DNA of 64,000 nucleotides, taken from contig CASFIQ010000016.1 of assembly GCA_949294785.1 (NCBI GenBank), forward strand, positions 8,770 through 72,769. Direction: 5' to 3'. The first letter of the stretch is position 1; the number at the start of each line of letters is the position of its first letter. The stretch is from an uncultured Collinsella sp. GTDB taxonomy: Bacteria; Actinomycetota; Coriobacteriia; Coriobacteriales; Coriobacteriaceae. The position numbers and the translations under genes are program-made. Positions 6,560 to 53,846 of this stretch are shown here, piece after piece. Below the pieces are notes generated by a model. It was not told the DNA's origin. It worked only from the letters and a program-made list of their open reading frames with translations, and did not search any database.

Positions 6560-6564
6560 CGCAA

Positions 6565-8981: not shown

Positions 8982-9044
8982 TGGGTATCCCGGTCCTTTC
9001 ATCTTGGATGCTGCAGGGGTGCTTGCGGGCGCGGTGGCGCCGTC

Positions 9045-10948: not shown

Positions 10949-11181
10949 ATGCGTCTCCCGTTCGTCGTTTTCCGCCCGATGCGCGGCCACCTGCGGGCGC
11001 GTACCCTGCGGCCCTGTGCAAGTTGGACCATGGTAGCTCACCGGGAGACGCGCGATGCATGCGACATCGGGTGCAACATCTAATTAACGTTGCCGCGTCG
11101 TGAAGAAGGCGATGGGGCGGAGATGGCCGCCCTGATGCTCGACGAGGCGCGACACGGCGAAAAGGGGGCTGGAGGTCGAAG

Positions 11182-11210
11182 AAAAAAGCGGCGACCCAGG
11201 TGGCCGCCGC
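11182..11210 (-). terminator. Intrinsic terminator of tRNA-Arg
   Basis: Minus strand GCGGCGGCC-ACCTG-GGTCGCCGC-TTTTTT, 14 nt downstream of the tRNA CCA. Confidence 0.85.
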
Positions 11211-11223
11211 CCTGATGCTCGCG

Positions 11224-11300
11224 TGGTGTCCCGTGCAGGATTCGAACCTGTGACCTTCTGCTCCGGAGGCAGACGCTCTATCCAGCTGAGCTAACGGGAC
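11224..11300 (-). tRNA. tRNA-Arg (anticodon CCG)
   Basis: Cloverleaf GTCCCGT/ACGGGAC acceptor, GCTC/GAGC D stem, TCTGC-CT-CCG-GA-GCAGA anticodon arm, GGTTCGAATCC T loop, encoded CCA. Confidence 0.98.
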
Positions 11301-11314
11301 ATGGTGCAAGGGTC

Positions 11315-11342
11315 ATTATACTCGTATCGCTGGGCGCCGCAA
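11315..11342 (-). promoter_or_regulatory. Housekeeping-sigma promoter of tRNA-Arg
   Basis: TTGCGG-N16-TATAAT on minus strand, 14 nt upstream of the mature tRNA. Confidence 0.7.
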
Positions 11343-11354
11343 TGGATCTGTTGG

Positions 11355-11394
11355 CCGGCGGTCCCGCTGCCCGATACCGGCGGTCCCGCTGCCC
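11355..11394. repeat. Perfect 18-bp tandem direct repeat (22-bp period)
   Basis: CCGGCGGTCCCGCTGCCC at 11355-11372 and 11377-11394, separated by GATA. Confidence 0.9.
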
Positions 11395-11484
11395 TTGCTC
11401 TTTTGCTGAGGGTTGGCCCCGATGCTCGCCGACGGGGTTTTCTTGGGGCATACTTGAAAACGTTGTCGACACGATGGAGGCCTC

Positions 11485-14286
11485 ATGGACCAGCGATCCG
11501 ATGCGTCGGGTGATCCCCGAGGCGCGGGGGAGCCGCCGCTTTCCGGACTCACTTCCGCCGAGGTGGCGGAGCGCGTCGCCCAGGGCAAGGTCAACCTCAA
11601 CATGGAGCTCAAGACCAAGACGGTTCGCGAGCTCGTCCTCGAGAACCTGCTCACTCTGTTCAACCTGATCAACGTGGTGCTCGCCGTGCTCGTCGTCATC
11701 ACGGGCTCATTCAAGAACCTCACCTTCCTGCTTATCGTCTTGCTCAACACCCTGATCGGAGTCGTTCAGAGCCTGCGATCCAAGCGTCTGGTGGACAAGC
11801 TCACCCTCCTCGCCACCAAAAAGGCCACCTGCATCCGCGACGGCTCCGAAGTCGAGCTCGATCTGGACCAGATCGTCCTCGACGATGTGGTGAAGCTGGG
11901 GCGCGGGGATCAGATCCCGGCTGACGCCGTCGTGGTCTTAGGCAGCGCCCAGGTGAACGAGAGCCTGCTCACGGGCGAGAGCAACCTGATCAAAAAAGAC
12001 CCCGGATCGGAGCTCATGAGCGGAAGCTTCCTGGATTCCGGCCTGGTCTACGCGCGCGTGGTGCATGTGGGCGCCGACAACTACGTGGCGAAGATCAATA
12101 ACGAGGCCAAATATGTGAAGAAGGTCAACTCCGAGATCATGAACGCGCTGAACGCGATCGTGCGCTTCGCGAGCGTGATCATGCTCCCGTTGGGCATCGC
12201 GCTGTTCTGGTCGAGCATCCAGGAGCCGTACGGTGCGTGGGCGAGCCTGGCGGAGTCCTCTTCGGGCGCATCTGGCGGCATCATCAGCTGGATGTTCTCG
12301 GGGCCCGATGCCCGCGCCGCCGTCTCGGCGGCGATTCTTTCGACCGTGGGCGCGCTGCTGGGCATGATCCCGCAGGGCCTCGTGCTGCTCACCTCATCGG
12401 TCCTCGCGATCGCGACCGCGCGCCTGGCGCGCCGCCAGGTGCTTGCGCAACAGCTCTACTGCATCGAGACGCTCGCACGGGTTGACGTGCTCTGCCTTGA
12501 TAAGACGGGCACGATCACCTCGGGCCGCATGGAGGTCGAGGGCATCTACCCGGTCGGGATCGACCGAGGGCGGGGGAGCGCCGCTCCGGATGCGGATGAG
12601 CGGGTGGCACCGATCGACTTCGCGCTCGCCAACATCGCCCAGGCGACCGCCGCCGATGCCAACGAAACCTGCAAGGCGCTCATCGACTACTACGCCTCGC
12701 GCGACGTCCCCCGTGAGCAGCCGGTGCGCGTGGTGCCCTTCTCGTCCGCCAAGAAGTGGAGCGGCGCCTCGTTCGCGCATGCGAGTTATGTGATGGGTGC
12801 GGCGCAGTTCGTGCTCTCTCCCGATGCGTTCGCCGAGGTCGAGCAGGATGTCGCGCGCCTTGCCGATACCTGCCGCGTGCTCGTCGCGGCCCAGGTTGAC
12901 GGCTTCACGGACGATGGCGACATGGTGGGGGAGCCGCGCGTGCTCGGCTTCGTCACGATCCGCGATGAGATCCGCGCCTCCGCCGCCGAGACCATCGGGT
13001 ACTTCTGCGACCAGGGGGTCGAGCTCAACGTCATCTCCGGGGACGACCCGCGGACCGTATCCTCGATCGCGCGCGTGGTGGGCGTTCCGGGCGCCGATGC
13101 CTATGTGGACGCGACGACGCTGGATAGCCCCCAGAAGATCGATGCGGCCGTCGAGCGCTACCATGTTTTCGGCCGCGTCACCCCGCAGCAGAAGCGCGAG
13201 CTCGTGGTCGCGCTCAAGCGGCGCGGGCACACGGTCGCGATGACCGGCGACGGCGTGAACGATGTTCTCGCCCTCAAGGAGGCGGATTGCTCGGTCGCCA
13301 TGGCGGCGGGATCGGACGCCGCGCGCAACGTGGCGGAGATCGTGCTCGTCAACAACGACTTCGCCAGCATGCCGGCCGTCGTCGCCGAGGGGCGCCGCTC
13401 GATCAACAACCTCCAGCGGTCCGCCGCGCTCTTCCTCACTAAGACGCTCTTCTCCATGGGCCTCGCGGCGATCTGCATCGCCTTCCCGCCCTATCCCTTC
13501 CAACCGATCCAGATGACGCTCATCAACTTCTTCTGCATCGGCTATCCCGGCTTCGTGCTGGGTCTCGAGGCCAACCGGGCCCGCGTCGAGGGGTCGTTTC
13601 TCGCCAACGTCGTCAAGCGCGCGCTGCCGGCGTCGATCTCGGTCATCTGCGCGAGCTGCCTGTGCATGGCGGCGGCGGCTCTTATGGGATACGACCACGC
13701 GGTGCTCTCCACCATGTGCCTCGTGACGTCGAGCTCCGTGGGGATCTGCCTCATCTGGCGCATCTCGCAGCCGTTCACGCCCGTGCGCGCGGCGCTCCTC
13801 GCCTCGATCGTGGTCGGCCTCTGCGTGGGCATCATCGGGTTCCCCGACCTGTTCTCGATCGCCGCGATGCGGACCTCTATGGTCGTCTTCCTCATCTTGA
13901 TCGTGGCGGGTTGCTGTGCGCTCTTCTTTCGGCTCGCTGCCTGGATGGACTCCGCATCGGCTGCGGGCAGGCGCTCGGCCACCGGGTTCGGGCGCGGGGT
14001 GCGCGTTCGCCTTCGCCACGGCGCCTCGCGCGAGGTCACCTCGACCGGCTCCGCCCCGCGCCGCATGGTGATGCGCTTACGGTCGCGCTTCAACCGGTCC
14101 GCGGACACGCACCCCGCGCGTGCCGCAGAGTCCGAGGCCTCCGCCGCGCGCTCGGTCGGCGAGACCGAGCCTGCGCGCTCCGATGCCATCGCGCGCCCGC
14201 CGGCTGCACGCCGGCGCCGTGTTACCAAATCGGCAGACGGCATCAAGGTCACGATGCCGGGACGGAAAAAAGATAGGATGGGGTGA
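11485..14286 (+). CDS. Cation-transporting P-type ATPase (CtpE-like)
   Basis: TGES, DKTGT, SGD, MTGDGVND motifs, about 10 TM segments; TM4 motif reads PQGL. Confidence 0.93.
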   Translation: MDQRSDASGDPRGAGEPPLSGLTSAEVAERVAQGKVNLNMELKTKTVRELVLENLLTLFNLINVVLAVLVVITGSFKNLTFLLIVLLNTLIGVVQSLRSKRLVDKLTLLATKKATCIRDGSEVELDLDQIVLDDVVKLGRGDQIPADAVVVLGSAQVNESLLTGESNLIKKDPGSELMSGSFLDSGLVYARVVHVGADNYVAKINNEAKYVKKVNSEIMNALNAIVRFASVIMLPLGIALFWSSIQEPYGAWASLAESSSGASGGIISWMFSGPDARAAVSAAILSTVGALLGMIPQGLVLLTSSVLAIATARLARRQVLAQQLYCIETLARVDVLCLDKTGTITSGRMEVEGIYPVGIDRGRGSAAPDADERVAPIDFALANIAQATAADANETCKALIDYYASRDVPREQPVRVVPFSSAKKWSGASFAHASYVMGAAQFVLSPDAFAEVEQDVARLADTCRVLVAAQVDGFTDDGDMVGEPRVLGFVTIRDEIRASAAETIGYFCDQGVELNVISGDDPRTVSSIARVVGVPGADAYVDATTLDSPQKIDAAVERYHVFGRVTPQQKRELVVALKRRGHTVAMTGDGVNDVLALKEADCSVAMAAGSDAARNVAEIVLVNNDFASMPAVVAEGRRSINNLQRSAALFLTKTLFSMGLAAICIAFPPYPFQPIQMTLINFFCIGYPGFVLGLEANRARVEGSFLANVVKRALPASISVICASCLCMAAAALMGYDHAVLSTMCLVTSSSVGICLIWRISQPFTPVRAALLASIVVGLCVGIIGFPDLFSIAAMRTSMVVFLILIVAGCCALFFRLAAWMDSASAAGRRSATGFGRGVRVRLRHGASREVTSTGSAPRRMVMRLRSRFNRSADTHPARAAESEASAARSVGETEPARSDAIARPPAARRRRVTKSADGIKVTMPGRKKDRMG

Positions 14287-41308: not shown

Positions 41309-41342
41309 ACCGCCCCGGTGCCTTACGGTTCCGGGGCGGTTC
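41309..41342. terminator. Hairpin between convergent glyS and Hpt gene
   Basis: ACCGCCCCGG-N12-CCGGGGCGGT perfect 10-bp stem. Confidence 0.7.
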
Positions 41343-41366
41343 GCTCATATCGGCCCGTTATGATGC

Positions 41367-41711
41367 TCAGTGTGATTCGCATGCACTGCGGATTGCGCGG
41401 TAGGCATCGCCAAGCTCGCCTCTGAGCGCCTGTGCGGCGGCGAGGTCACCGTCACGGAGATCGCCGAGCATGCGGGTCGCGACATCCTGGAGGCGCGTCA
41501 TGGAAAGGTTCGCGGCGACCCCCTTGAGGGTGTGCGCGGCCGCCGCAGCACCTTCGACATCGCCCCCATCGAGGGCGCGTTCCAGCTTCTCGAACGACTG
41601 GTCCGACATGAAGACGTCAAGCAGCTGATTGAGCAGGCTCTCGTTGCCCAGAAGCCGCTCGAGCGCGCCATCGACATCCATTCCCGCTGCCATAAGGGAT
41701 GCTCGGTCCAT
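41367..41711 (-). CDS. Stand-alone Hpt (histidine phosphotransfer) protein
   Basis: GMDVDGALERL, AAHTLKGVAANLS; ATG 41711 after GAGGTG. Confidence 0.92.
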   Translation of the reverse strand: MDRASLMAAGMDVDGALERLLGNESLLNQLLDVFMSDQSFEKLERALDGGDVEGAAAAAHTLKGVAANLSMTRLQDVATRMLGDLRDGDLAAAQALRGELGDAYRAIRSACESH

Positions 41712-41719
41712 AAGCCACC

Positions 41720-42910
41720 TCACCAATCCGTCGGGGTATCCGCAGCCGTCAAGGAGTTCTGCTCGTAGAAGGTCGAGAGCTGGGGCTCGATCTGATGGAA
41801 GGCGTCGAGGAGCCGCGGTCCGAAGGTCCCGCATGCGCCCTCGTCGATCATACGGCAGGCCTCCTCGCGCGGGATGGCGCTTTTGTAGACCCGCTTGCAG
41901 CGCAGCGCGTCGTAGACGTCGGCGATCGATACCACCTGGGCCCATCTCGTCTGCTCGTCGCCGATGAGGCCGTCGGGATAGCCGCGTCCATCCCAGCGCT
42001 CGTGATGATGGCGCGCGATATCGACGGCGAAATCGAAGGCGCGGTTCTTATGCATCTGGGGAATGTTCTCAAGCATCTCGGCGCCGATGACCGTATGGCT
42101 CTTCATGATCTGGAACTCCTCGTCGGTGAGGCGCCCGGGCTTGCCGAGGATCGCGTCCGGGATGCCGATCTTGCCCACATCGTGCATGATCGATGCAAGG
42201 GCGATGCTCGTGACCTCCTCGTCGCTCAGGCCGTCTCCCATCTCGGTCTGGGTGAGAAAAGCTCGGGTGATGTCGTGTATGCGCCGCACGTGCCCGCCGG
42301 ATTCGGAGTCGCGGAATTCGATCGCGGCGGCGAGGGTCTCGATCATGCCGCGGTTGAGCTCGAGGATTTCTCCCGCACGCCGAACGAGCTCGGCCTGCTG
42401 CTCCATCACGACGGAGCTCAGGCGACGGCGCGCCGCGAAGAGCTCGATCACCGAGCGGACGCGTCGCGTGACGACGAAGGGGACCACCGGTTTCTCGATC
42501 ACGTCCATGACACCGAGCTCGTAGGCGCGCCTCATGACCTCGGGCGAGGCCTCGGCGCTGATGAGGAAGACGGGGATGCGGCGCGGTAGACCCTTCGCAT
42601 CCAGGCGTTCCAGCAGGGCGAGCCCGTCCATCGGTTCCATGCGATAGTCCAGAAGCACGGCGCAGAAGCGCCCCGGATCGGCGCGGATGAGATCGAGCGC
42701 CGCCGAGCCGTCGGAGGCCTCCTGTATCGTGTATTCGTCTCGGAAAAGGTTCCCCAGCACGGCTCGGTTGATCAGGTCGTCATCCACGATGAGGAGCGTG
42801 GTGGGGTCCCCGTATTTCAGGGCGAGCGGCAAAAACGGGTCGGTTTCGGCCGGGGCGTCCGCACGCGAACCGACGAGGTCGAGGAGGTACTCATCGATGG
42901 TCCTATCCAC
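41720..42910 (-). CDS. Response regulator with HD-GYP cyclic-di-GMP phosphodiesterase domain (RpfG-like)
   Basis: REC: LIVDDD, LLDYRMEPMDG, EKP. HD-GYP: ESGGHVRR, HDVGKIGIPD, HHERWDGRGYPDGL, IADVYDAL. Confidence 0.94.
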   Translation of the reverse strand: MDRTIDEYLLDLVGSRADAPAETDPFLPLALKYGDPTTLLIVDDDLINRAVLGNLFRDEYTIQEASDGSAALDLIRADPGRFCAVLLDYRMEPMDGLALLERLDAKGLPRRIPVFLISAEASPEVMRRAYELGVMDVIEKPVVPFVVTRRVRSVIELFAARRRLSSVVMEQQAELVRRAGEILELNRGMIETLAAAIEFRDSESGGHVRRIHDITRAFLTQTEMGDGLSDEEVTSIALASIMHDVGKIGIPDAILGKPGRLTDEEFQIMKSHTVIGAEMLENIPQMHKNRAFDFAVDIARHHHERWDGRGYPDGLIGDEQTRWAQVVSIADVYDALRCKRVYKSAIPREEACRMIDEGACGTFGPRLLDAFHQIEPQLSTFYEQNSLTAADTPTDW

Positions 42911-44099
42911 GGCGGTCCTCCTTCGAAGCCGATGCGAGCTCTGCGTCGTTCGGCGTCAGGCGCGGGTTGAACGGGGTCCCCTGCGCGAGCTGCGCCGCGC
43001 ACTGGTCGTAGCGATGGATCACACATCGCGCCTTGCCGGAGCGCTTTGCCTGGTAAAGCGCCTCATCTGCCTGGCGCGTCATCTCGTTGAAGTCGACGCG
43101 CTCCCGTTGCGCGTACACGATGCCGCAGCTCACCGTCAGCGCGATGCCCGTGAGCGAATACGTCTGCGCCGTGAAGCGCGATCTGATCGAGGCGAAGCGG
43201 TCCTCGAGGATCGCCGTATCCGCAAGCTTGTCGATGACGATGAGGAACTCATCTCCGCCGAAACGGCATACGATGTCGTTCGAACGGAAGAAGCCGCTCA
43301 GAATGGAGCCCATGGCGGCGAGCACCTCATCGCCCGCCGCATGGCCGCGCGTGTCGTTCAGCGTCTTGAAGTCATCGATATCGATGAAGGCGAGCGAGCA
43401 GGTGACCTTGGGGTTCACATCGGCGAAATAGCGGTTCGCCAGCTCGAGGAACCCGCGCTTGTTGTAGAGGTTGGAGAGCGTGTCGCGCATGCTTAAGAGC
43501 TCGAACTTGGTTTTGAGGTCGTGCGTGGCGAGACGCGAGCGCGAGATGAGCTGCGATACGCAGATGGAGAAGCACAGCCCCGTCACCATCTCGAATATGT
43601 CGTACTGCGCGATGAAGGGCCCCTTCGTCATGAGAACCAGGACGACGTAGGCCGTTTCGGTTATGAGGAGCAGCCCGTAGGAGATAAGACCGGGCAAGAT
43701 GAAGAGCGCCGGCAGCGCAACGCAGATGAGCTGCGTGAAGCTCGATGGCGCGCCGGGGTCTCCCAGGGTGTCGAGCGAGACGCCCATCGTGTACAGCAGG
43801 ATCTCGAACGCGATGCAGACCGCGGGAACCTGCTCGAGCGGGATGTGGTCCAATTTGAACCAGGAGAACAGGAAGAAGGCGCCCAGGAGCGGAACGAATG
43901 CGAGGTGGATGGGGCTCGGCATCCAATCGCGGATCAGCACGCGCGCCACGATCATAAGGGCGGCGAGCAGGACGATCGAAGCGGTCGAGGCGAGTTTCAG
44001 AAACTGGATGTTCGAGAGCGCGATTTCGTGACCGCTGTCGGCATGGTAGCTCTTCAGGCGTTGCATGTGGGTGCGAAACCGTCCGACCAGGTTTCTCAA
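42903..44099 (-). CDS. Membrane-bound diguanylate cyclase
   Basis: About 6 N-terminal TM segments, DTLSNLYNKR, DIDDFK, GHAAGD, I-site RSND, intact GGDEF; TTG 44099 after GAGGTG (alternatives 44141, 44066). Confidence 0.92.
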   Translation of the reverse strand: MRNLVGRFRTHMQRLKSYHADSGHEIALSNIQFLKLASTASIVLLAALMIVARVLIRDWMPSPIHLAFVPLLGAFFLFSWFKLDHIPLEQVPAVCIAFEILLYTMGVSLDTLGDPGAPSSFTQLICVALPALFILPGLISYGLLLITETAYVVLVLMTKGPFIAQYDIFEMVTGLCFSICVSQLISRSRLATHDLKTKFELLSMRDTLSNLYNKRGFLELANRYFADVNPKVTCSLAFIDIDDFKTLNDTRGHAAGDEVLAAMGSILSGFFRSNDIVCRFGGDEFLIVIDKLADTAILEDRFASIRSRFTAQTYSLTGIALTVSCGIVYAQRERVDFNEMTRQADEALYQAKRSGKARCVIHRYDQCAAQLAQGTPFNPRLTPNDAELASASKEDRRG

Positions 44100-44213
44100 G
44101 CGCGTCTCACCTCGATTCCGGAAACAGTACCCGCCCCTCAAGAATATCTTGAATGGGCGACGGTTTCAAAGCCCATCGCCCCTATCCGTTGTCAATCTCG
44201 ACGCATATGCCCA

Positions 44214-46904
44214 TCAATTCGAACGGTCGGCCCGCATGGCGGCGCCAAGTGCCCGGGAGAGCGCCGCGACATCGATGGGCTTGGTCACCAGACCGTCCAT
44301 CCCCGCTCGTCGCGCGCGGTCCTGATCGTCCTCGAACGCGCTCGCGGTGAGGGCGATGATCGGGATGAGCGATGCGTCGGCGCGTTCAAGGGCCCGGATG
44401 CGGCGCGTTGCCTCGCAACCGTCCATGACAGGCATCTGCATGTCCATGAGGATCGCGTCGAAGGTGCCGGGTTCGGTCGCGCTGAAGCACTCGAGCGCCT
44501 CCTTGCCGTCCGGTACCACCTCGACCTCGATGCCCAGGGAGCCGAGCAGCGCCCGGTCAATGATCGCGTTCGTCTCGTTGTCCTCGGCGACGAGGACGCG
44601 GCGTCCTGCAAGATCGGCCGACGGCTGGGCTTGGGGAGCGTCCGCACCACCGGGTTCTCGCCGGCTCCCGTTCGGCTCGATCGCCTGCCCCGTTTCGAGA
44701 GGAGAACCGCTCCCGTTCCGTGATGCGGAAGCGGGGTCTTCCGTGCCGCCGCGCGCGGTGTCCGTCGCGTCCGCGCCATCTTCCGAGGCCATCTTGAAGG
44801 GGATGTCCAAGGTGAAGACCGTGCCCTCGCCCAGTTTGCTCTCCACCGAGATCTCACCGTCCATCTGCTGCACCAGGCTTCTCACGATGGGCATGCCCAG
44901 TCCCGATCCCGTGACGCCGCGGGGGGCGAAGACCTTCTCGCGCTCGAACGGGTCGAAGATGCGGGGGAGGAACTCCTCCGACATGCCGATGCCGTCGTCG
45001 GCGACCACAAGGCGGCACAGGATGCTGCCGTCCCGCTCGCGCCGGTCCTCGATCAGCTCGAGCTTCACGTCGACATGGGTTCCGGGATGGCTGTACTTGA
45101 GCGCGTTCGACACCAGGTTGTTCAGGACCTGGCGGATGCGGCGCTTGTCCGCCATGACCTTGCCGGGCAGCTCGTCGACGTGCACCTCCAGCTGCTTATC
45201 CTGTCGCTCGGCGCTCTCGGTGAAGGCGACGCTCGCGCGTGCCACGCAACGGGCAAGATCGAGCGGCGCCGGCTTGATCACGCCCTTGTTCAGCTGTTCC
45301 GCCTGCGCGAGCTCCAAGATATCCTCGACGAGCGCCTGAAGCTGCTCGCCGGCGTCTTCCACCAGATCGAGATAGTGTGCTACCTGTCGGGAATCGTCGC
45401 TTTCCTTGGCGAGGCGGGTCATGCCGACCACGGCGTTCAGCGGCGTGCGCATGTCGTGGCTGATGTTTCCCAGAAGCTCCGTGCGCCGGCGCGCCGCCTT
45501 CTCGGCGGTCTCAAGCGACGTGCGCAACAGGTCGATGCGCTGGCGCGACTCGCGGGTCTCGTCGTCGACGAGTCTGAAGGACAGGACCACCTCGTTATCG
45601 ACAAGCACGGGGCTCGTGATCACGCGGACGCTCACCCAGCGCGTCTCGGTGCCGAAGCGCCGTTTGAACTCGCCACCGAACTCCTCGACATGGTCGTCGA
45701 TCAGCCGGCGGATGTGCTCGGGCGAGAAGCTCTCGCGGAACCGCTCCCAGGTATCGGGCTCCACCACGGCCTTCATCACATCGAGGAAGTGCTCGTAGGT
45801 GCCCGATCTCCCCACATCGTCCGCGACGTCGGCGAGCGCCTTGATGGTGGTGTAGCGACCCGTGTCGACGTTGATACGGTAGATCGCGAAGAACGTATCG
45901 CCCAAGATCATGAGCGTGTCGTTGACCTCCTTGATGCGGCGCGTTCGGATGTAGTTGACGATGGCCCCCAGAAGCAGGATGGCGAAGACGGTGATGGAGA
46001 CGCCGAAGAACGTGACGAGCTCGCCGTCGGTCACGTTCGTGAGCACGCTCTTCACGGGCACGGTCACCACCGAGAGCCAGCCGTTGTCGAACTCCAGATG
46101 GTAGGCGAAGCGTTTGCCGCCCGAGGCGTCGGCGATGACGGTCTGGTCCTGGCTGGTGTCGGCGAGGACTTCGGCGCGGAGCTCGGTTAGGTAGCCCTGC
46201 GCATCCGATGTGGTGACATCGAGGCGCGTGGAGGCGCTGAGCAGGTTTCCGGCGCTGTCGAAGAGGTAGTAGGAAAAGTCGTACTCGTTATCCGGGTCCA
46301 TCGCGGTCCCGAGCCGTGCGAGATCGACGTCGACGTCGAAGACGTCATCGGTGTTTCCGATCGTCTGCGCGAAGGTGATGACGGGTCGCTGGGTCGTGGC
46401 GTCCAGGTAGGCGTCTGTCGCGATGAGCGTCCCCGGGGAAGCGACCGCCTCTTGGTACCAGGACGTGCTCGCAAAATCGTAAGAATCGCGGACGCCCACC
46501 CTTCCCGATCGGTAGACCGCGCCGTCGATGAGGGCGTACGGGGCGATCTCGGTCCCCTCGAGTGTCTCGCTTGCGTTCGAACCGAAGTTCTGGATCCAGT
46601 TGGCGATGCGCTGAGGATCGGTGCGGGTCACGATGAGATTTTCCACCGACGACGCACCGTAGCTGCAATAGAGCTCGTAGCCGGAAAGACGCGACTGCTC
46701 CTCAGCGGCATAGCTGCGCGCGAGCTGCGTGGCGAACGAGGCCGCGTTGCGCGAGATCGTCGTTCTGACCAGCACGATCGCCGCGGTCGCGCCGAGCACG
46801 AAGACGATGGCGGCGGCGAGCACGATCGTGCGCGTCCTGAGGGGCCGGCGCACCCGGGACGGCGCCGGCGCGGGTCGGTTGATGCGGAATCCCTTCATGT
46901 CCAC
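44214..46904 (-). CDS. Hybrid sensor histidine kinase (TM-dCache-TM-PAS-HisKA-HATPase-REC)
   Basis: H-box NISHDMRTPLN, N-box NNLVSNALKYS, DDGIGM, GSGLG, REC AEDN...ILMDMQMPVMDG...TKP. Confidence 0.94.
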   Translation of the reverse strand: MDMKGFRINRPAPAPSRVRRPLRTRTIVLAAAIVFVLGATAAIVLVRTTISRNAASFATQLARSYAAEEQSRLSGYELYCSYGASSVENLIVTRTDPQRIANWIQNFGSNASETLEGTEIAPYALIDGAVYRSGRVGVRDSYDFASTSWYQEAVASPGTLIATDAYLDATTQRPVITFAQTIGNTDDVFDVDVDLARLGTAMDPDNEYDFSYYLFDSAGNLLSASTRLDVTTSDAQGYLTELRAEVLADTSQDQTVIADASGGKRFAYHLEFDNGWLSVVTVPVKSVLTNVTDGELVTFFGVSITVFAILLLGAIVNYIRTRRIKEVNDTLMILGDTFFAIYRINVDTGRYTTIKALADVADDVGRSGTYEHFLDVMKAVVEPDTWERFRESFSPEHIRRLIDDHVEEFGGEFKRRFGTETRWVSVRVITSPVLVDNEVVLSFRLVDDETRESRQRIDLLRTSLETAEKAARRRTELLGNISHDMRTPLNAVVGMTRLAKESDDSRQVAHYLDLVEDAGEQLQALVEDILELAQAEQLNKGVIKPAPLDLARCVARASVAFTESAERQDKQLEVHVDELPGKVMADKRRIRQVLNNLVSNALKYSHPGTHVDVKLELIEDRRERDGSILCRLVVADDGIGMSEEFLPRIFDPFEREKVFAPRGVTGSGLGMPIVRSLVQQMDGEISVESKLGEGTVFTLDIPFKMASEDGADATDTARGGTEDPASASRNGSGSPLETGQAIEPNGSRREPGGADAPQAQPSADLAGRRVLVAEDNETNAIIDRALLGSLGIEVEVVPDGKEALECFSATEPGTFDAILMDMQMPVMDGCEATRRIRALERADASLIPIIALTASAFEDDQDRARRAGMDGLVTKPIDVAALSRALGAAMRADRSN

Positions 46905-47060
46905 CTCATCTCGATGGAAAGAGCGACTCCATTAGGTTAGCAAAAGTGAGGGGGGACCCACGTTGCAGGGAGCCGTCCGCACGTTCGCGAATACCGTTTG
47001 CGGAACAGCTCGCCCTGCATGATCCGCGAGGGCAAAAAGGAGGAGGGGAGGGTATAGAAT

Positions 47061-49610
47061 ATGGAACTTAAGGAGGTATCTCTCATGACCAAGATTTCGC
47101 ATCATACGGCAGACCGCCCGGCGCGTTTTGTGGTGGGCGTGGGCGCTTCGGCAGGCGGCGTGGAGGCCCTTCAGGAGCTCTTCCAGTATCTGCCGTCGAA
47201 TACAGGCATGGGATTCGTGGTGATCCAGCACCTGAGCCCCGATCATCGCAGCCTTATGGCGGACCTCCTGGGTAAGCAGACCGAGATGCGCGTGATGCAG
47301 GTCGACCAGGATGTCGAGATCGAGCCCAACACGGTCTATCTCATCCCGCCCAAGAAGAACCTCTCGATCGCGGGCGGTCGGCTCCGCCTCTCAGATTACG
47401 ACCACGCGGTCCTCAACCACCCGATCGACATCTTCTTCACCTCGCTCGCCGACGAGTACGGTGAGCGCTCCGTCGCGGTGGTCCTTTCGGGCACCGGCAC
47501 GGATGGTACTGCGGGCATTCGCGCGGTGAAGGAGGCGGGCGGCCTCGCGATCGTGCAGAAGCCCGAGAGCGCCAAGTTCGACGGCATGCCCCGCAGCGCC
47601 ATCTCCACCGGGCTCGTGGATTGGGTGCTCGACCCGCACCATATCGCCGACGAGATCGTGAACTTCGGTCGCTACCATATGGACCTCATGCCCGAGGACG
47701 GTGGCGACATGTTCCGCGACGATGAGAGCCTCTCGCGCATCTACAGCATCCTGAAGCAGCAGAACGGCATCGATTTCACCTATTACAAGCGCTCGACCAT
47801 CCTGAGGCGCATCGAGCGCAGGATCATGGTCACCCACTCGAGCTCCCTTGCCGAGTATGCGCAGAAGCTCGACGGCAACGCCGAGGAGGTGGGCACCCTC
47901 ACCAAGGAGATCTTGATCGGCGTGACGAGCTTCTTCCGCGATGCGCCGTTCTTCGAGACCCTGAAATCGAAGGTCATCACCGCACTCGTGCGCAACGCGA
48001 GCGAGAACGAGCCGATCCGCGTCTGGAGCGCGGGATGCTCCACCGGCGAGGAGGCCTACTCGGTCGCGATCCTCTTCAAGGAGGTCATGGCTGAGCTCAA
48101 CGTCAAGCGCGATGTGAAGATCTTCGCCACCGATATCGACGTGCGCGCCATCGAGAAGGCGGGCAAGGGGATCTTTCCGGAGAGCATCTCGGAGGACGTC
48201 TCGACCGAGCGGCTCGCCCGCTACTTCATCAAGCGCGACGACACGTACCATATCTCGAAAGACGTTCGCCAGATGGTGATCTTCGCGCCGCACAACATGC
48301 TCTCGGACCCGCCGTTCGGCAAACTCGACCTCATCTGCTGCCGCAACGTCATGATCTACTTCCAGCCGGTCCTGCAGCGGAGCCTGTTCGCGATCTTCCA
48401 TTCGGCGCTCAAGAACGGCGGGTACCTGTTCTTGGGCAAGAGCGAGACGGCCAACGAGTTTCCCAACGTCTTCCAGCCGGCATGCCCCACGGAGAAGATC
48501 TACCTGCACAACGGTACCGGCAAGATGGACTCGCCCGCGCCCACCTCATTCAACATCCCAACGGTCCAGGGCGTGCCCGCCAAGCGCGTGCAGCGCGAGC
48601 TCAAGCGCAACGACGAGTACGGCATCGAGAACATCTACACGCGCTTTCTGGAGCGTTTCCTTCCCGCTTCGGTGGTGGTCAACGCCAACAACGACGTGGT
48701 CCACTTCTTCGGTGATTACCTGGATTACGTCTCGATTGCTCCGGGCAAGGCGTCGTTCAACCTGTTCACCATCATCACCCGCGACCTCTCGCTCGCCGCG
48801 TCCACGGCGCTCTCGAGGGCGCGCGCCGAGGGCAGGGCGGTCACCTACACCGATATCGTGGTGGACACGCCGTCCGGGCGCAAGGTGATCGACCTGGTGG
48901 CGCAACCCATTCCCATGCCCGCGAACCTTGAGGCGGACCTGGTGGCGATACTCTTCGTCGAGAACCGCAAGGACGACTACGACGGTACGGTCGAGAAGTT
49001 CAACATCGATGACACCACGGCGCGACGCATCTCCGACCTGGAGGGCGAGCTCCGCGACTCGCAGAGCGACCTGCAATCGACCATCGGCGAGCTGGAGACG
49101 GTGAACGAGGAACTGCAGGCCGCGAACGAGGAGCTCCTGACCGCCAACGAGGAGCTTCAGAGCTCGAACGAGGAGCTGCAATCCGTCAACGAGGAGCTCT
49201 ACACGGTCAACACCGAGTACCAGCAGAAGGTCGACGAGCTCACGATGACCACGAACGACCTGTCGAACTTCCTGTCCTCCACGATGATCGGAATCCTGTT
49301 CATCGATGAGAACTTCAACAGCCGCAAGTTCACCGAGTACGTGGGCCGCGAGTTCAACCTTATGGAGCACGACGTGGGCCGTCCTATCCAGATCTTCGCG
49401 CACAGCTTCCCCGACGAGGACATCGTCGCGGACGCCCAGCGCGTGCTGAAGACGCTCGCGCCCATCGACCGCGAGATCCGCTCGCTCTCCGGCAGCTGCT
49501 ACACGCTGCGCATCGCGCCCTACCGCACGACGGAGAACAGCATCAAGGGTCTTGTCATCACCATCATCGACAGCCTGGGGCTGCCGCCGCGCCAGCATGA
49601 GGCGGAATAG
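47061..49610 (+). CDS. CheB methylesterase-CheR methyltransferase fusion with PAS domains and NEEL coiled coil
   Basis: CheB: GASAGG, QHL, SGTGTDG. CheR: TSFFRD, WSAGCSTGEEAYS, TDID, CRNVMIYF. Heptad NEEL repeats; C-terminal PAS-like domain. Confidence 0.93.
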   Translation: MELKEVSLMTKISHHTADRPARFVVGVGASAGGVEALQELFQYLPSNTGMGFVVIQHLSPDHRSLMADLLGKQTEMRVMQVDQDVEIEPNTVYLIPPKKNLSIAGGRLRLSDYDHAVLNHPIDIFFTSLADEYGERSVAVVLSGTGTDGTAGIRAVKEAGGLAIVQKPESAKFDGMPRSAISTGLVDWVLDPHHIADEIVNFGRYHMDLMPEDGGDMFRDDESLSRIYSILKQQNGIDFTYYKRSTILRRIERRIMVTHSSSLAEYAQKLDGNAEEVGTLTKEILIGVTSFFRDAPFFETLKSKVITALVRNASENEPIRVWSAGCSTGEEAYSVAILFKEVMAELNVKRDVKIFATDIDVRAIEKAGKGIFPESISEDVSTERLARYFIKRDDTYHISKDVRQMVIFAPHNMLSDPPFGKLDLICCRNVMIYFQPVLQRSLFAIFHSALKNGGYLFLGKSETANEFPNVFQPACPTEKIYLHNGTGKMDSPAPTSFNIPTVQGVPAKRVQRELKRNDEYGIENIYTRFLERFLPASVVVNANNDVVHFFGDYLDYVSIAPGKASFNLFTIITRDLSLAASTALSRARAEGRAVTYTDIVVDTPSGRKVIDLVAQPIPMPANLEADLVAILFVENRKDDYDGTVEKFNIDDTTARRISDLEGELRDSQSDLQSTIGELETVNEELQAANEELLTANEELQSSNEELQSVNEELYTVNTEYQQKVDELTMTTNDLSNFLSSTMIGILFIDENFNSRKFTEYVGREFNLMEHDVGRPIQIFAHSFPDEDIVADAQRVLKTLAPIDREIRSLSGSCYTLRIAPYRTTENSIKGLVITIIDSLGLPPRQHEAE

Positions 49611-49680
49611 GGTGCGCCCGCCGGCTCCGGTTCCCGTGGATATCGGGGATTGAGGTAAGAAGGGCAAGCGAGATACTCGG

Positions 49681-49721
49681 AAGAAGACGGCGCCGCACCG
49701 CGAACATGATGCGGCGCCGTC
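49681..49721 (-). terminator. Terminator between convergent cheBR and EAL genes
   Basis: GACGGCGCCGCA-N12-TGCGGCGCCGTC perfect 12-bp stem followed by TTCTT on minus strand. Confidence 0.75.
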
Positions 49722-49726
49722 GCCGG

Positions 49727-52700
49727 TTACGATTGCGTGCCTCGAGCACCTATGCGACCGCGATCAGCGGTGGGGGAGCGCTGCAACCGGGGGGGGTCCA
49801 ATCTCAGGTACTTCTGCTCGAAGATCTCGGGCGGAAGGGGCTTGTCGTAATAGAAACCCTGGCAGATTGGGCAGCCCTCGTTTGCGATCGCGATCGCCTG
49901 GTCGCGGGATTCGACTCCCCCTGCCACGCAGGTCATGCCCTGCGCGGCGCAGATCTCGGCGATGTTGTGCACGAGCGAACGGCTTACATCGTTCTCGGGA
50001 AGGCCCCGCGTGACGCTGCCGTCGAGCTTGATCGTGTCGAAGCGCACGTTTGCGAGAACCGCCACGTTCGAGTACCGGGAACCGAAATCGTCGAGCGCGA
50101 CGCGCAGGCCGAGCGACCGGTATCGCTCCACGAGCTCGCTCAGCGTGGTCTTTCCCAGGTCGATGGCGGTCTCGGTGATCTCCATCTCCATAAGGTCGCT
50201 CGGGACGTCGGGGAACCTGCTCATGATCGCGAGCACCGACGCGAGCGCGGTCGAGCCCATCAGCGTGAAGCGCGAGAAGTTGCTCGAGATCGGCTTCACG
50301 TCGAGCCCCTTGGCACGCCAGGTCGATAATAGCTCGAGCGTCTGCTCCAGGATGAAGTAATCGAGCTCGTTGATGCGGCCCGCCTGCTCCAACCGCTCGA
50401 TCTCGCGGACGGGGGAGACGGGCTTGCCGTCGGGTGCCAGCGCGCGGGCGAGCGCCTCGGCACCGATCATCTCGCCAGTGCGCACGTCGATCTTGGGCTG
50501 CAGGAACACGGTGAAGCGATCGCGGATGGAAGTCGTCCCGGCAAGCGCATCGAGGTCGATGGGGATGGGAGTCTTGCCCGGCTCTATACCGATCTGGCGC
50601 AGGAGGTCCGCGTCGGCAGGACGGTCGGAGAGAGCCGTCGCGCGGGCCTCGTTCAGCGTGCGCCAGACCTTATCCTTGCTGTCGGTCCACGCGGCTCCGA
50701 TCAAGATGTCCTCGGGGTTGCTCGTATAGAGGGCGCTTCGTGTGCTCGCGCAGCGCTGGATGAAGGCGTGATACAAGCTATCGGGATAAAGCGTGACGAA
50801 GTCGGTGTCCGAGACGCGATAGAGGTGCTCGCGGCCGAAGATCCGATTCAGGGTCGAGGTGACCTTGAGGAAGACGCGGATGGCTCCGCTGAAGCCCGAC
50901 CGGATGACGATTCCTGCGGGGTCCTGCACGCTCACGTAGAGCACACCCACGGTGAGCCATGACGATGACTCAGCGGCGGCGAGCTCGCGGTCGAGCTCGG
51001 GCTCGCCGGGCATCGCCTCGAGCTCGTCCAGAAGCGGCTCCTCTGCCCTCAGCGTACCCGTCGAGAGGCGGGACCATTGGCCCAGGAGGCGCTCCGCGAC
51101 GAGGCGGTCGAGGCCCCAGTGCTCGCAGCGCTCCTGAGGCTGGTCGATGCAGAGCACCATGGTGCGCGTGTCGTTGCGTGAGACCGGAACGAGCGCGAAG
51201 CTCCACATCTCGCCGTCATCGGGCATGACCGGGGCGTTCGCGGTGCGCTCGCGCTCGAAGTACACCGGATCGGACTGCGCCAGGTTCCGCTCGATGAAGG
51301 GGAAGCGCGAGACGGGGCTGTTCGAGAACGCGGTGCGGATGGGCGTGATCCCGGCGGCGTCCCATTCGAACATGATCTCGAGCTGCATGTCGGTGTGGGT
51401 GACCATGGCCACGTATACGCGTCGTGCCATATGGAAGATACCCAAGCCATGTATGGCGGTGTCGATGGCATGGGTCGCGGTCGGGGCGGAGAGCATGCGC
51501 GTGCAGATCTTCGCGTACGCCGTCGCCTCGCCGGGATTCAGCGCCTCGATGGCATCTGCCGTCTCGGGTCCGATGTCGTTGTCGCGCAGGTGTGCGCGGT
51601 GCCCGGCGACGGGTACCGGGCGCACGAACGTGTCCCTCGTCAGATCCATGCGTTGCTCACAGATCGATTGGGCGCGCACGAGTGCGGGCTCGAGCGCGAA
51701 CGCCGCAGTAGTGCCGTAGACGATGCCCACCGTGAACGCGAAACGCTCCGGTGACCCCTTGCCTTCGGAAGGGAGCTCGTCGCTTACGCTCTCGCGTACG
51801 GACTCGCAAGCTGCGCGCACCCGGCGCGAGACGGCACCGGGCGTGCTCATTCCGGCGATGAAGGCCGCAATCGTTTCTTCATCAAGCGAGAACGTCACGC
51901 ACTCGGTCCCCAGGAACACGGCGAGGCCGCATGCGATGTCGGCGCTGAGCGCGTCGCTGCGCTGCGCGCTTCCGGGCACCTTGATGATTGCGAGCGCGCA
52001 CGGGTCGTCGGACTCGGAGCCGGAGCCGGAGAGGATGGTCTCCACCACGAGGCTCGCGTATTCGTAGCGGTACAGCATGGTCCTGGGGTCGCGCATCACG
52101 GAGGGGGCGGTCGATGCCTCCCAACTGGTGCGCTCGGCGCAACCGTTGGTGATGGCGGTCAGCCACAGGTGTCCGTCGCTGCGACGGCGCGCGCATGCGG
52201 CGATACGCGCGGGGACCACCGAGCCGGAGGGCTGCACCACACGAAGGAAGTCGATCGCCCATCTCCTGCCGGCGTCGTAACGCTCGCGCACCGCGACGGG
52301 GTCTAAAAGCTTCCGGTAGGTTCGACGGTCGGCGTCGGTGAACATGATCTGCGAGCCTGCTTCGAGGGCGTGCCCGTAGTCCATGGTCACCGGGGCGTAG
52401 CCCAAGTCGTTGTCGGGTTTCATCAGGTACTCGAGCCGTCCCTCGTCGAGGTCCGAATACGAGGCGCGTATCAGATGGGGGTAGAGGGAGTCGGGAAAGG
52501 GGGAGCGGTCGGGACCCGGCCGGTTGGGTGTTTCCAGGTCGCGGCAGATGCCGATCGCGCGCGGGGAGGGATCTGAGTCCGAGCCGACCAAACGAAATGA
52601 GAGCGCGCACCATTCATAGCCGGGGTGGCCGTGGTGGCGCACGCGCGCAGTTGCCCCGCCGTGAGGCGCGCCGGAGCGGATGCCGTCGAACAGGCGGCGC

Positions 52701-53050
52701 ACCGAGGATGCAGATTCGGGATGGACCATGCCCGCCTGGATCGCGGAATCGGGCATGTCCTCGAAGACGCGCTTCTGCAGCACGCCCTCATCATCGATGA
52801 AGTAGATCTTAAGCACGTTAGCCTGCGGTTCGAAGATCCAGAACTCGATGTCGTAGGAGCGGGTGGCAAGCTGCAGCCAGGTGAGCTGGGTCTCGATGCC
52901 CCGCTGTTGCCGCTCGATGGTGTCGACGAGGTCCTCGGGTGAGAACGGGGCGCGGTCGAAGAGGCTCAGTTCGATTGCGGCTTTCATCGGGTCGTCTTCG
53001 CCTGGTGCGCCTGCATCGTCCGCGGCGATGCGCTTCGTGTCAATGGTCAC
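49727..53050 (-). CDS. Multidomain EAL protein (PAS-like, degenerate GGDEF, GAF, degenerate GGDEF, EAL)
   Basis: FLQPK, AEALAR, SSNFS, EITE, LDDFGSRYS, KLD, QGFYY; GAF signature FEWDAAGI; GGDEF remnants SLDEET and RVSDTDF. Confidence 0.88.
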   Translation of the reverse strand: MTIDTKRIAADDAGAPGEDDPMKAAIELSLFDRAPFSPEDLVDTIERQQRGIETQLTWLQLATRSYDIEFWIFEPQANVLKIYFIDDEGVLQKRVFEDMPDSAIQAGMVHPESASSVRRLFDGIRSGAPHGGATARVRHHGHPGYEWCALSFRLVGSDSDPSPRAIGICRDLETPNRPGPDRSPFPDSLYPHLIRASYSDLDEGRLEYLMKPDNDLGYAPVTMDYGHALEAGSQIMFTDADRRTYRKLLDPVAVRERYDAGRRWAIDFLRVVQPSGSVVPARIAACARRRSDGHLWLTAITNGCAERTSWEASTAPSVMRDPRTMLYRYEYASLVVETILSGSGSESDDPCALAIIKVPGSAQRSDALSADIACGLAVFLGTECVTFSLDEETIAAFIAGMSTPGAVSRRVRAACESVRESVSDELPSEGKGSPERFAFTVGIVYGTTAAFALEPALVRAQSICEQRMDLTRDTFVRPVPVAGHRAHLRDNDIGPETADAIEALNPGEATAYAKICTRMLSAPTATHAIDTAIHGLGIFHMARRVYVAMVTHTDMQLEIMFEWDAAGITPIRTAFSNSPVSRFPFIERNLAQSDPVYFERERTANAPVMPDDGEMWSFALVPVSRNDTRTMVLCIDQPQERCEHWGLDRLVAERLLGQWSRLSTGTLRAEEPLLDELEAMPGEPELDRELAAAESSSWLTVGVLYVSVQDPAGIVIRSGFSGAIRVFLKVTSTLNRIFGREHLYRVSDTDFVTLYPDSLYHAFIQRCASTRSALYTSNPEDILIGAAWTDSKDKVWRTLNEARATALSDRPADADLLRQIGIEPGKTPIPIDLDALAGTTSIRDRFTVFLQPKIDVRTGEMIGAEALARALAPDGKPVSPVREIERLEQAGRINELDYFILEQTLELLSTWRAKGLDVKPISSNFSRFTLMGSTALASVLAIMSRFPDVPSDLMEMEITETAIDLGKTTLSELVERYRSLGLRVALDDFGSRYSNVAVLANVRFDTIKLDGSVTRGLPENDVSRSLVHNIAEICAAQGMTCVAGGVESRDQAIAIANEGCPICQGFYYDKPLPPEIFEQKYLRLDPPRLQRSPTADRGRIGARGTQS

Positions 53051-53405
53051 GTCAGAACCTCTCCCTATGGGCGCAGCTCCCCGTCCGCGTCGCAGCTAAC
53101 TTAATATTATTACCCACATTCAACCATCTATAAACCTACCCCGGGGTACAAAATATGTAAACGGTAAATACCGGGTGCGGGAACGGTGAAATTTGCGTGA
53201 CGAGGGGGCTGTATTTGACCTCTCCGTCACATCACGTGGTCGAGGGCGTATTCTGATGCCAGGGAGAAGGAAACCAGCGCCTTCCGGCTCCGGAGCCCTC
53301 TCTCCGACATGTACGGGGGATCGGATCCGAACGGTCCCCTGTTTTCATGTGGGGGAGAGTCGGCCCCGGTGCCTCACGGCTTCTTCAAACCTTGTCAAGC
53401 GCCCC

Positions 53406-53434: not shown

Positions 53435-53504
53435 GCTTTCGTTTGTCAAACCCATGTGCCGGCCTACGGGCGCTGCACCTCTGGATGAGAGTTAGGAACG
53501 AGAA

Positions 53505-53846
53505 ATGGACTACATCCGCGCAATCGAGCGCCAGCAGATCCGCGAGGACATCCCGCAGGTCCGCGTCGGCGACAACGTCAAGGTGCACTACCGCATCAAG
53601 GAGGGTGACCGCGAGCGCATCCAGGTCTTCCAGGGCGACGTCATCCGCATGAGCGGCGCCGGCTCCCGTGAGACCTTCACCGTTCGCAAGATCTCCTTCG
53701 GCGTGGGCGTCGAGCGCACCTTCCCGCTGCACAGCCCCAAGATCGGCAAGCTCGAGGTCGTGCGTCACGGCCGCGTTCGTCGCGCTAAGCTCTACTATCT
53801 GCGCGATCGCGTGGGTAAGGCTGCCCGCATCCCCGAGAAGCGCTAA
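53505..53846 (+). CDS. rplS: 50S ribosomal protein L19
   Basis: [37 protein letters not shown]. Confidence 0.99.

Follow-up and report, generated by a model that had tools for sequence, protein, structure and literature searches.

A probably acquired c-di-GMP signaling island in an uncultured Collinsella species joins an Rpf-like putative phosphorelay module to a kinase-less MAC1-type CheB-CheR protein

INTRODUCTION

Why would a bacterium of the Coriobacteriales, a lineage generally described as non-motile, encode the methylation enzymes of chemotaxis beside enzymes of cyclic di-GMP (c-di-GMP) turnover? The question is raised by six signaling genes that lie between glyS and rplS in a 64,000-nucleotide stretch of DNA from an uncultured Collinsella sp. 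(the window; positions given below are its own). The window comes from contig C16 of a metagenome-assembled genome (MAG) of 1.97 Mb (GenBank GCA_949294785.1, referred to here as G000; 223 contigs, 86% complete, G+C content of ~67%). A preliminary description held the genes to be a self-contained, complete circuit and a candidate for an undescribed system. Their domains, motifs, and site were confirmed by Pfam searches, translations, and comparison with congeners, and the enzymes for c-di-GMP synthesis and degradation appear intact, with complete GGDEF, HD-GYP, and EAL motifs. Sequence comparisons indicate that the island is a composite of two recurrent modules and not one indivisible new system. 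Module A consists of a hybrid histidine kinase, a GGDEF diguanylate cyclase, a response regulator with receiver (REC) and HD-GYP domains, and an Hpt protein; module B consists of a CheB-CheR protein (abbreviated CheBR) and a large EAL protein. The best explanation of the whole, which we consider reasonably probable, is an acquired island in which an Rpf-like module A stands beside a self-methylating CheBR/EAL module B and for which no output cluster was found.

Domains were called with Pfam, structures were modeled with AF2 and matched to the PDB with Foldseek, and trees were computed with FastTree. The genomes compared include two CheB-CheR carriers from other genera (G012 and G018, each 99% complete), the congeners G002, G004, G006, and G009, and G016, from another genus. 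L numbers denote homologous loci or contigs from relatives that were compared with the window.

RESULTS AND DISCUSSION

The island is a probably acquired segment at the glyS-rplS site

The inserted segment and its surroundings are delimited as follows.

Left flank: glyQ and glyS (glyS ends at 41272)
41312..41328, plus strand: left copy of a 17-nt direct repeat, GCCCCGGTGCCTTACGG, within the hairpin (terminator) 3' of glyS
53363..53379, plus strand: right copy of the direct repeat, GCCCCGGTGCCTCACGG, ~60 nt before similarity to congeners restarts
Right flank: rplS (53505-53846), the RNase HII gene rnhB, yraN, and comM

All six genes, with whole reading frames and catalytic motifs, occupy the glyS-rplS gap of G000. 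Without an insert, this gap measures ~200 to 330 bp in two congeners (G006 and G002) and in G016. Nucleotide similarity to the congeners is lost from 41273 and returns at 53437, in the rplS leader. The two repeat copies are identical at 16 of 17 positions and are the 2 matches in the 64 kb, where 0.01 would be expected by chance; their outer ends are the positions 41312 and 53379 that had been given as the limits of the island. No integrase or transposase was found within the inserted segment, and its G+C content is slightly lower (0.63 to 0.66 versus 0.66 to 0.68). The distribution of the genes is patchy as well. An EAL domain was detected in none of the 11 congeners searched; at the family level, 4 of 36 genomes have one. 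CheBR was found in 2 of 60 relatives, both from other genera. In one of these, G018, the island lies at the same glyS-rplS site in a rearranged form, with the kinase at the opposite end and VTC and CotH genes inserted. By these sequence comparisons, the ~12.1-kb segment appears to be horizontally acquired, carrying c-di-GMP signaling into the genome of a non-motile member of the Coriobacteriales.

A CheB-CheR protein with an invariant Glu-Glu heptad helix

The plus-strand gene of module B encodes the following features.

47061..49610, plus strand: kinase-less MAC1-type CheBR (Pfam, AF2 model, alignments, and homologs); the database copy begins at Met9 (47085)
Domains of CheBR: CheB, residues 23-209; CheR, 220-483; PAS-like, 520-646; 91-residue helix, 649-739; PAS_10, 743-837
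49102..49206, plus strand: 21-nt periodic DNA (direct-repeat family D1) encoding five N-E-E-L-x-x-x heptads (residues ~682-716), the candidate methyl-accepting segment

Pfam assigned CheB_methylest (5e-58), CheR (4e-59), CheR_N (3e-11), and PAS_10 to CheBR. The AF2 model (pLDDT of 79) confirmed the succession of CheB, CheR, PAS-like domain, uninterrupted 91-residue helix, and PAS_10, and predicted disordered linkers after CheB (residues 208 to 218) and after CheR (residues 492 to 520). The CheB domain carries the motif GASAGG, His57, and Asp148, and the CheR domain carries the S-adenosylmethionine (SAM) motif VWSAGCSTGEE; this motif and the catalytic residues of both domains were invariant across the aligned homologs, as was the basic helix of CheR_N (YKRxTxxRRIERR). 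Neither HisKA nor HATPase was found by Pfam or in the model, in which the protein terminates after PAS_10. Nor did Pfam match a receiver domain, the CheB catalytic domain starting at approximately residue 23 to 25.

The heptad segment was invariant in 15 proteins and near-invariant in 80 loci, down to an overall identity of 42%. Heptads 2 to 5 were unchanged across all clades, solvent-exposed positions included. The CheBR of one locus (L027, from a Candidatus Merdiplasma MAG) contains an insertion of exactly one heptad (ANEELLT) in the helix, so the Glu-Glu array can change by whole heptads.

The domain names alone would make CheBR an ordinary adaptation enzyme that serves methyl-accepting chemotaxis proteins (MCPs) encoded elsewhere, and 14% of G000 is absent from the assembly. 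Against this, MCPsignal, CheW, and flagellin gave no matches in G000 or in the two more complete carriers, G012 and G018 (positive controls matched; CheA was not searched separately). The CheB domain of the island is the sole CheB domain in each of the three genomes, in agreement with its designation as orphan in the preliminary description, and it lacks the receiver that CheA phosphorylates. Canonical chemotaxis adaptation was rejected on these grounds, and we regard service to distant MCPs as close to refuted. The methylation memory that the preliminary description considered for the island is not supported, since a CheB domain without a receiver is missing the classical phospho-feedback.

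The class of methyl-accepting coiled-coil proteins, MAC1, was reportedly named by Wuichet and Zhulin in 2010. Its members incorporate CheB and CheR and act as receptor and kinase within a single polypeptide (bioRxiv 10.1101/2022.05.07.491037; MiST3, PMC6943060). In databases, such proteins bear the K13924-type label [quoted passage not shown] The cataloguing of MAC-type proteins dates from 2010, and thousands are known, yet in 2022 they were, to those authors' knowledge, experimentally uncharacterized in any respect (bioRxiv 10.1101/2022.05.07.491037); we found no later experimental test in the open literature. By its described architecture, CheBR fits the MAC1 class in that CheB and CheR reside in one polypeptide and a Glu-Glu coiled coil is predicted from sequence and model; it departs from the class in that a kinase within the same protein is absent. 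Because the CheB-CheR-coiled-coil arrangement is already catalogued, the suggestion of an undescribed system is not supported. More than 8,000 homologs of similar length exist, annotated as "chemotaxis protein CheB," "CheR family methyltransferase," or "PAS domain-containing protein."

The invariant heptads, the CheR_N basic helix, the catalytic residues, the disordered linkers, and the very name of the class all point to CheBR as a possible substrate of its own enzymes. So does the failure to find MCPsignal or CheW in the three genomes, which offers no alternative substrate.

A large EAL protein accompanies CheBR across gut bacteria

49727..53050, minus strand: large cytoplasmic EAL protein of 1,107 aa, convergent with CheBR; likely start Met22 (52987)

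We examined gene neighborhoods of close-clade loci, defined by a CheBR identity of 59% or more and by available upstream sequence (n = 36; Lachnospiraceae, Oscillospiraceae, Christensenellaceae, Spirochaetales, and Succinivibrionaceae). In 35 of them, an EAL-protein homolog is encoded on the CheBR strand and ends immediately before that gene. This adjacency holds although the EAL proteins are only 22 to 39% identical, versus 59 to 81% for CheBR.

The EAL domain of the window protein (Pfam, 1e-49) has a complete catalytic set (EAL, N, ExxE, DDFG, KLD, E, and QG), and these residues were invariant in 28 homologs; noncatalytic PAS and GAF surfaces were conserved as well. Pfam searches of the N-terminal 840 residues, in five pieces and with E values up to 5, returned no meaningful match. 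In the AF2 model (mean pLDDT of 79), the order is helix, PAS, PAS, GGDEF-like, GAF-like, GGDEF-like, and EAL, so the PAS/xGGDEF/GAF/xGGDEF/EAL architecture first proposed was essentially right, with one PAS domain to be added. Both GGDEF-like domains are degenerate, the second reading SDTDF in place of GGDEF and lacking RxxD. The best Foldseek matches were the GGDEF-EAL tandems of DosP, MorA, RbdA, and LapD, with TM-scores of ~0.85 to 0.9 to solved EAL domains; the match covers the C-terminal part only, and the PAS, GAF, and first GGDEF-like calls reflect fold topology alone.

CheR and CheB normally modify another protein, and CheBR might do the same, with the EAL protein or another island protein as the methyl-accepting substrate and the CheBR helix serving only in dimerization or signaling. 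The near-universal adjacency of the two genes and the conserved noncatalytic surfaces of the EAL protein would suit such action in trans. However, the EAL protein family showed neither a conserved array of Glu-Glu heptads nor a distinctive helix conserved at the N terminus, and its N-terminal domains vary between phyla, whereas the CheBR helix does not vary even where it is exposed to solvent. We therefore think that methylation in trans is unlikely. A complex prediction for EAL residues 17 to 650 with CheBR residues 640 to 849 scored 0.14 (mark, 0.32) and gave no verdict.

Homologs of CheBR that are 59 to 69% identical occur in MAGs of Lachnospiraceae, Oscillospiraceae, Spirochaetales, Succinivibrionaceae, and Desulfovibrio. 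In the FastTree phylogeny, the Coriobacteriia copies form one clade nested within a Bacillota-dominated clade, with the root and the direction of transfer tentative. Given this nesting and the cross-phylum identity, CheBR appears to have been transferred among gut bacteria. Most close homologs of the CheBR/EAL pair (loci L016 to L050) came from chicken-gut MAGs of five phyla, with 59 to 69% protein identity. The sequences suggest a CheBR/EAL cassette circulating within the chicken-gut habitat. The sequencing runs with matching DNA were metagenomes; their labeled rows named only gut and chicken gut, in small shares, and no RNA run was listed, so that these runs carry no weight for habitat or expression.

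Module A encodes a putative phosphorelay to an HD-GYP phosphodiesterase

The genes of module A form an operon on the minus strand.

44214..46904, minus strand: hybrid histidine kinase (transmembrane segment, double-PDC [dCache-type] sensor, transmembrane segment, PAS-like, HisKA, HATPase_c, and REC)
42903..44141, minus strand: membrane GGDEF diguanylate cyclase (Pfam GGDEF, 1.6e-36); likely start Met at ~44066
41720..42910, minus strand: REC-HD-GYP response regulator of the c-di-GMP phosphodiesterase type (Pfam Response_reg, 7e-19; HD_5, 4e-25; HD also matched)
41367..41711, minus strand: Hpt protein of 114 aa, counted from a Met behind the ribosome-binding site GAGGTGG (Pfam Hpt, 8e-12)

The four genes follow one another in this order, with a spacing of 72 nt behind the kinase gene, an 8-nt overlap of the GGDEF gene with its neighbor, and 8 nt before the Hpt gene. 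The sensor region of the kinase matched MCP-like_PDC_1 above the cutoff (28.4 bits); dCache_1 fell below the cutoff, yet it was called in homologs. Phospho-acceptors are present in the kinase (HisKA His483 and REC Asp821), in the Hpt protein (the His of HTLKG), and in the response regulator (REC Asp88), the last of which also retains the HD motif and HHERWDGRGYPDG, as read from the translation. The GGDEF protein has a hydrophobic N-terminal half and an intact RFGGDEF motif, with an RSND I-site five residues upstream. Hybrid kinase, Hpt, and REC-HD-GYP are thus all in place, with intact His/Asp and HD/GYP motifs, as in Rpf-type systems, and these sequences support the kinase-to-Hpt-to-REC-HD-GYP logic envisaged in the preliminary description.

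The longest Hpt open reading frame extends to 41945, and the alignment with the G018 homolog starts at the chosen Met (41711). Within the out-of-frame 5' extension (41724-41750, minus strand), the string DGCGYPDGL resembles the HD-GYP signature DGRGYPDGL. We considered it as an HD-GYP relic and judged it a coincidence because only 14 of 16 nt match the DNA of the real motif.

The operon is conserved in G004, G009, G018, and L096/L097. Six of the 11 congeners carry a single GGDEF gene, and in both inspected (G004 and G009) it lies within a module A operon, which has the same gene order as in G000, occupies a different locus, and is accompanied by neither CheBR nor EAL.

L102 (G004:C2), 6477-11959: stand-alone module A
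L101 (G009:C2), 7908-13396: stand-alone module A

Identities between these operons and the window were 61% for HD-GYP, 41 to 44% for Hpt, 35% for the kinase, and 30 to 31% for GGDEF; for the REC-HD-GYP protein, they ranged from 61 to 66% when the G018 homolog was included. Because the four genes stand alone in congeners, module A appears to be autonomous. No EAL gene was found anywhere in G004 or G009, which would leave HD-GYP as the sole c-di-GMP phosphodiesterase of these congeners.

The modules occur together and apart

Co-occurrence of the six genes in other genomes, proposed as a check of the circuit, was confirmed: complete sets were found in G018 and on two metagenomic contigs (L096/L097) whose CheBR is 80% identical. 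In G018, CheBR is split near residue 765 (L006, G018:C1 ~12181-12187) by a frame change and one TAG, reflecting a pseudogene or an assembly error. In at least 11 loci (Coriobacteriia, Lachnospiraceae, Oscillospiraceae, and Scatomorpha), no more than 10 kb separates module A from module B. Module B occurs alone in most Bacillota loci, with module A within 10 kb in only ~7 of the 36 close-clade loci. Gene order differs among the window, G018, G012, and L096 to L099, and the two modules are on opposite strands.

The two modules may thus be independent cassettes that share only the c-di-GMP pool and have come to lie side by side at a recombination-prone site. The occurrence of each module alone, the variable gene order, and the opposite strands are what would be expected if there were no integrated circuit. 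Their repeated proximity despite rearrangement nevertheless exceeds chance placement, even if the loci involved are not independent of one another, and we regard the absence of any circuit as doubtful.

Another question is whether CheBR works with the EAL protein or with the dCache hybrid kinase and its Hpt relay, in which case the island would hold the fused MAC1 kinases in split form. In a sister clade (47 to 50% identical), the same CheBR core is fused to HisKA-HATPase-REC and followed by an Hpt gene, and most of the best 120 longer homologs likewise have HisKA, HATPase, and REC (two have GGDEF, one of these also EAL). In the window, the kinase and CheBR genes diverge across 156 bp, and in Coriobacteriia a dCache hybrid kinase gene lies within one or two genes of CheBR in 8 of 10 contexts examined, the exceptions being L011, with no kinase in the 10 kb downstream of CheBR, and L099, which ends at the CheBR gene. 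Beyond this class, however, a kinase lay within 10 kb in only ~7 of the 36 close-clade loci from Bacillota and other taxa, versus 35 with the EAL gene, and in congeners the kinase would operate in module A without CheBR. A kinase partnership to the exclusion of the EAL protein seems improbable to us.

A candidate output cluster in close relatives

The nearest relatives carry, flanked by the island genes, genes for VTC, DUF4956, a CotH kinase, an unassigned protein of 750 aa, a protein with HEAT repeats, and a processive-type family 2 glycosyltransferase (GT2); on one relative contig, PelF/PelG-type genes are beside the island genes instead.

Six-gene VTC-to-GT2 set in Coriobacteriia: L096:1-7097; L098:1590-9404; L099:2052-9937; L011:2110-9889; L005:12105-16935

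The GT2 has chitin-synthase-like matches, and the 750-aa protein belongs to no Pfam family. By its position, the set may make polysaccharide or polyphosphate under the control of c-di-GMP, and the exopolysaccharide-type cluster of the close relatives is probably the output of the signaling genes. One cluster-bearing contig shares the right flank of the window (rplS, rnhB, yraN, and comM). A tblastn search for the output-cluster proteins found none in the 86%-complete G000 assembly, and the island copy therefore appears to be a reduced, signaling-only version.

Could this version be a decaying remnant whose polysaccharide output has been lost and whose signaling genes are functionless and heading for loss? 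Such decay would account for the missing output homologs, the patchy distribution in the family, and the frame break in the CheBR of G018. It is difficult to reconcile with six intact reading frames and a full complement of catalytic motifs in G000, and the incompleteness of the assembly bears on the missing homologs; we consider it quite improbable. Of the circuit first described as self-contained and complete, the co-occurrence of the genes stands, and the completeness is not supported: the modules are separable, and neither a c-di-GMP receptor nor an output was found in G000.

Proposed mechanism

We infer from the sequences every biochemical step given here, as well as the methylation target and its partner. 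In module A, an extracellular ligand would bind the double-PDC sensor and set the autophosphorylation of the kinase. Phosphate would then pass from His483 to Asp821, to the Hpt His, and to Asp88 of the REC-HD-GYP protein, switching c-di-GMP hydrolysis, with c-di-GMP supplied by the co-transcribed, I-site-bearing cyclase. In module B, the CheR and CheB domains, moving on their disordered linkers, would add methyl groups to and remove them from the Glu-Glu heptad helix of CheBR itself. PAS_10 would relay the methylation state of the helix to a partner, in the first place the EAL enzyme and perhaps also the hybrid kinase, so that c-di-GMP breakdown would be tuned by SAM-dependent modification with no need of a chemoreceptor, CheA, or CheW.

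In its strongest form, the proposal is that the kinase-less MAC1-type CheBR is a self-methylating coiled-coil switch, gated by PAS and directly controlling its partner EAL enzyme. This would be a receptor-free pathway from methylation to c-di-GMP, a two-gene cassette that gut bacteria of at least five phyla exchange and that in Coriobacteriia is connected with an Rpf-like relay and an exopolysaccharide cluster. We advance this form tentatively, as possible rather than probable.

Several observations weigh against the best explanation as a whole. Methylation of the helix is read from sequence, and the heptad register, with Glu-Glu at f/g and Leu at a, differs from that of MCP methylation sites. 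The classical MCP methylation consensus is Glu-Glu-x-x-Ala-Ser/Thr, which the NEELxxx heptads fit only loosely. Since CheB lacks a receiver, there is no evident feedback and hence no true adaptation, and "tuning" is a safer word than "adaptation." Because each module occurs alone elsewhere, the two may not belong to a single circuit; in one relative, CheBR lies next to the kinase and the surrounding 10 kb hold no EAL gene, which makes the partner ambiguous; and with identities of 59 to 80% across phyla, many loci are not independent observations. PilZ was not found in G000, G012, or G018, and no c-di-GMP receptor was identified in them. A search of the three genomes for the c-di-GMP-I riboswitch gave no match, with the control genomes silent too (c-di-GMP-II was not searched). 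The 86% completeness of G000 also leaves some room for an output cluster or an MCP in that genome. Finally, a second candidate cyclase, a PAS-GGDEY protein, is encoded outside the island (L100; G000 contig C172:64-1686, minus strand).

The PAS-GGDEY protein rules out the island as the only cyclase source of the genome. Its counterpart in G018 lies ~28 kb from the island.

Comparison with known systems

A canonical chemosensory pathway comprises elements that were not found here, namely, an MCP and CheW in the genome and a receiver N-terminal to CheB. The Wsp system of Pseudomonas is a chemosensory pathway in which CheR and CheB homologs belong to the control of a c-di-GMP cyclase, together with an MCP (WspA), CheW proteins, and CheA (WspE). 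The island resembles Wsp in that CheR/CheB-type methylation enzymes would be tied to a c-di-GMP output and not to motility, and differs from it in that neither MCP nor CheW was found with the island (CheA was not searched separately). The nearest relatives, in which island genes flank GT2 or PelF/PelG genes, recall c-di-GMP-dependent exopolysaccharide loci of the Pel, Bcs, and Pga types and their counterparts in Gram-positive bacteria, whereas such genes and a PilZ or PelD-type receptor were not found in G000.

In the RpfC/RpfG system of Xanthomonas, a hybrid kinase with an Hpt domain feeds a REC-HD-GYP c-di-GMP phosphodiesterase. Module A is analogous in its putative course from hybrid sensor kinase to Hpt to REC-HD-GYP, by which a signal would control c-di-GMP hydrolysis. 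It differs in its separate Hpt protein, its double-PDC sensor in place of the RpfC membrane domain, its co-transcribed GGDEF gene, and its lack of genes for diffusible signal factor synthesis. The EAL protein shares N-terminal PAS domains, a degenerate GGDEF domain, and a complete EAL domain with DosP of Escherichia coli and with RbdA and MorA of Pseudomonas aeruginosa, but it has a GAF-like domain and a further GGDEF-like domain that is degenerate, no sensor family recognizable by sequence, and a constant linkage to a CheB-CheR gene.

CheBR resembles MAC1 in that CheB and CheR are fused to PAS domains and a coiled coil of conserved Glu-Glu heptads, with no MCP found alongside. CheBR departs from that class in lacking HisKA, HATPase, and REC, in being paired with a separate EAL phosphodiesterase, and in being encoded on a probably acquired island of non-motile gut Coriobacteriia. 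The two-gene CheBR/EAL form has an enzymatic readout, c-di-GMP hydrolysis, and its hosts have no detected MCP or CheW to confound it; it is therefore a simple system in which to ask whether glutamate methylation can regulate targets other than chemoreceptors. The island also indicates that non-motile gut Coriobacteriia receive c-di-GMP signaling as a mobile package, in many cases together with genes for polysaccharide, which bears on the control of biofilm or capsule in gut commensals. Whereas the MAC1 class is known, catalogued, and unstudied, what is new here is its kinase-less, EAL-paired form in Coriobacteriia without a detected MCP.

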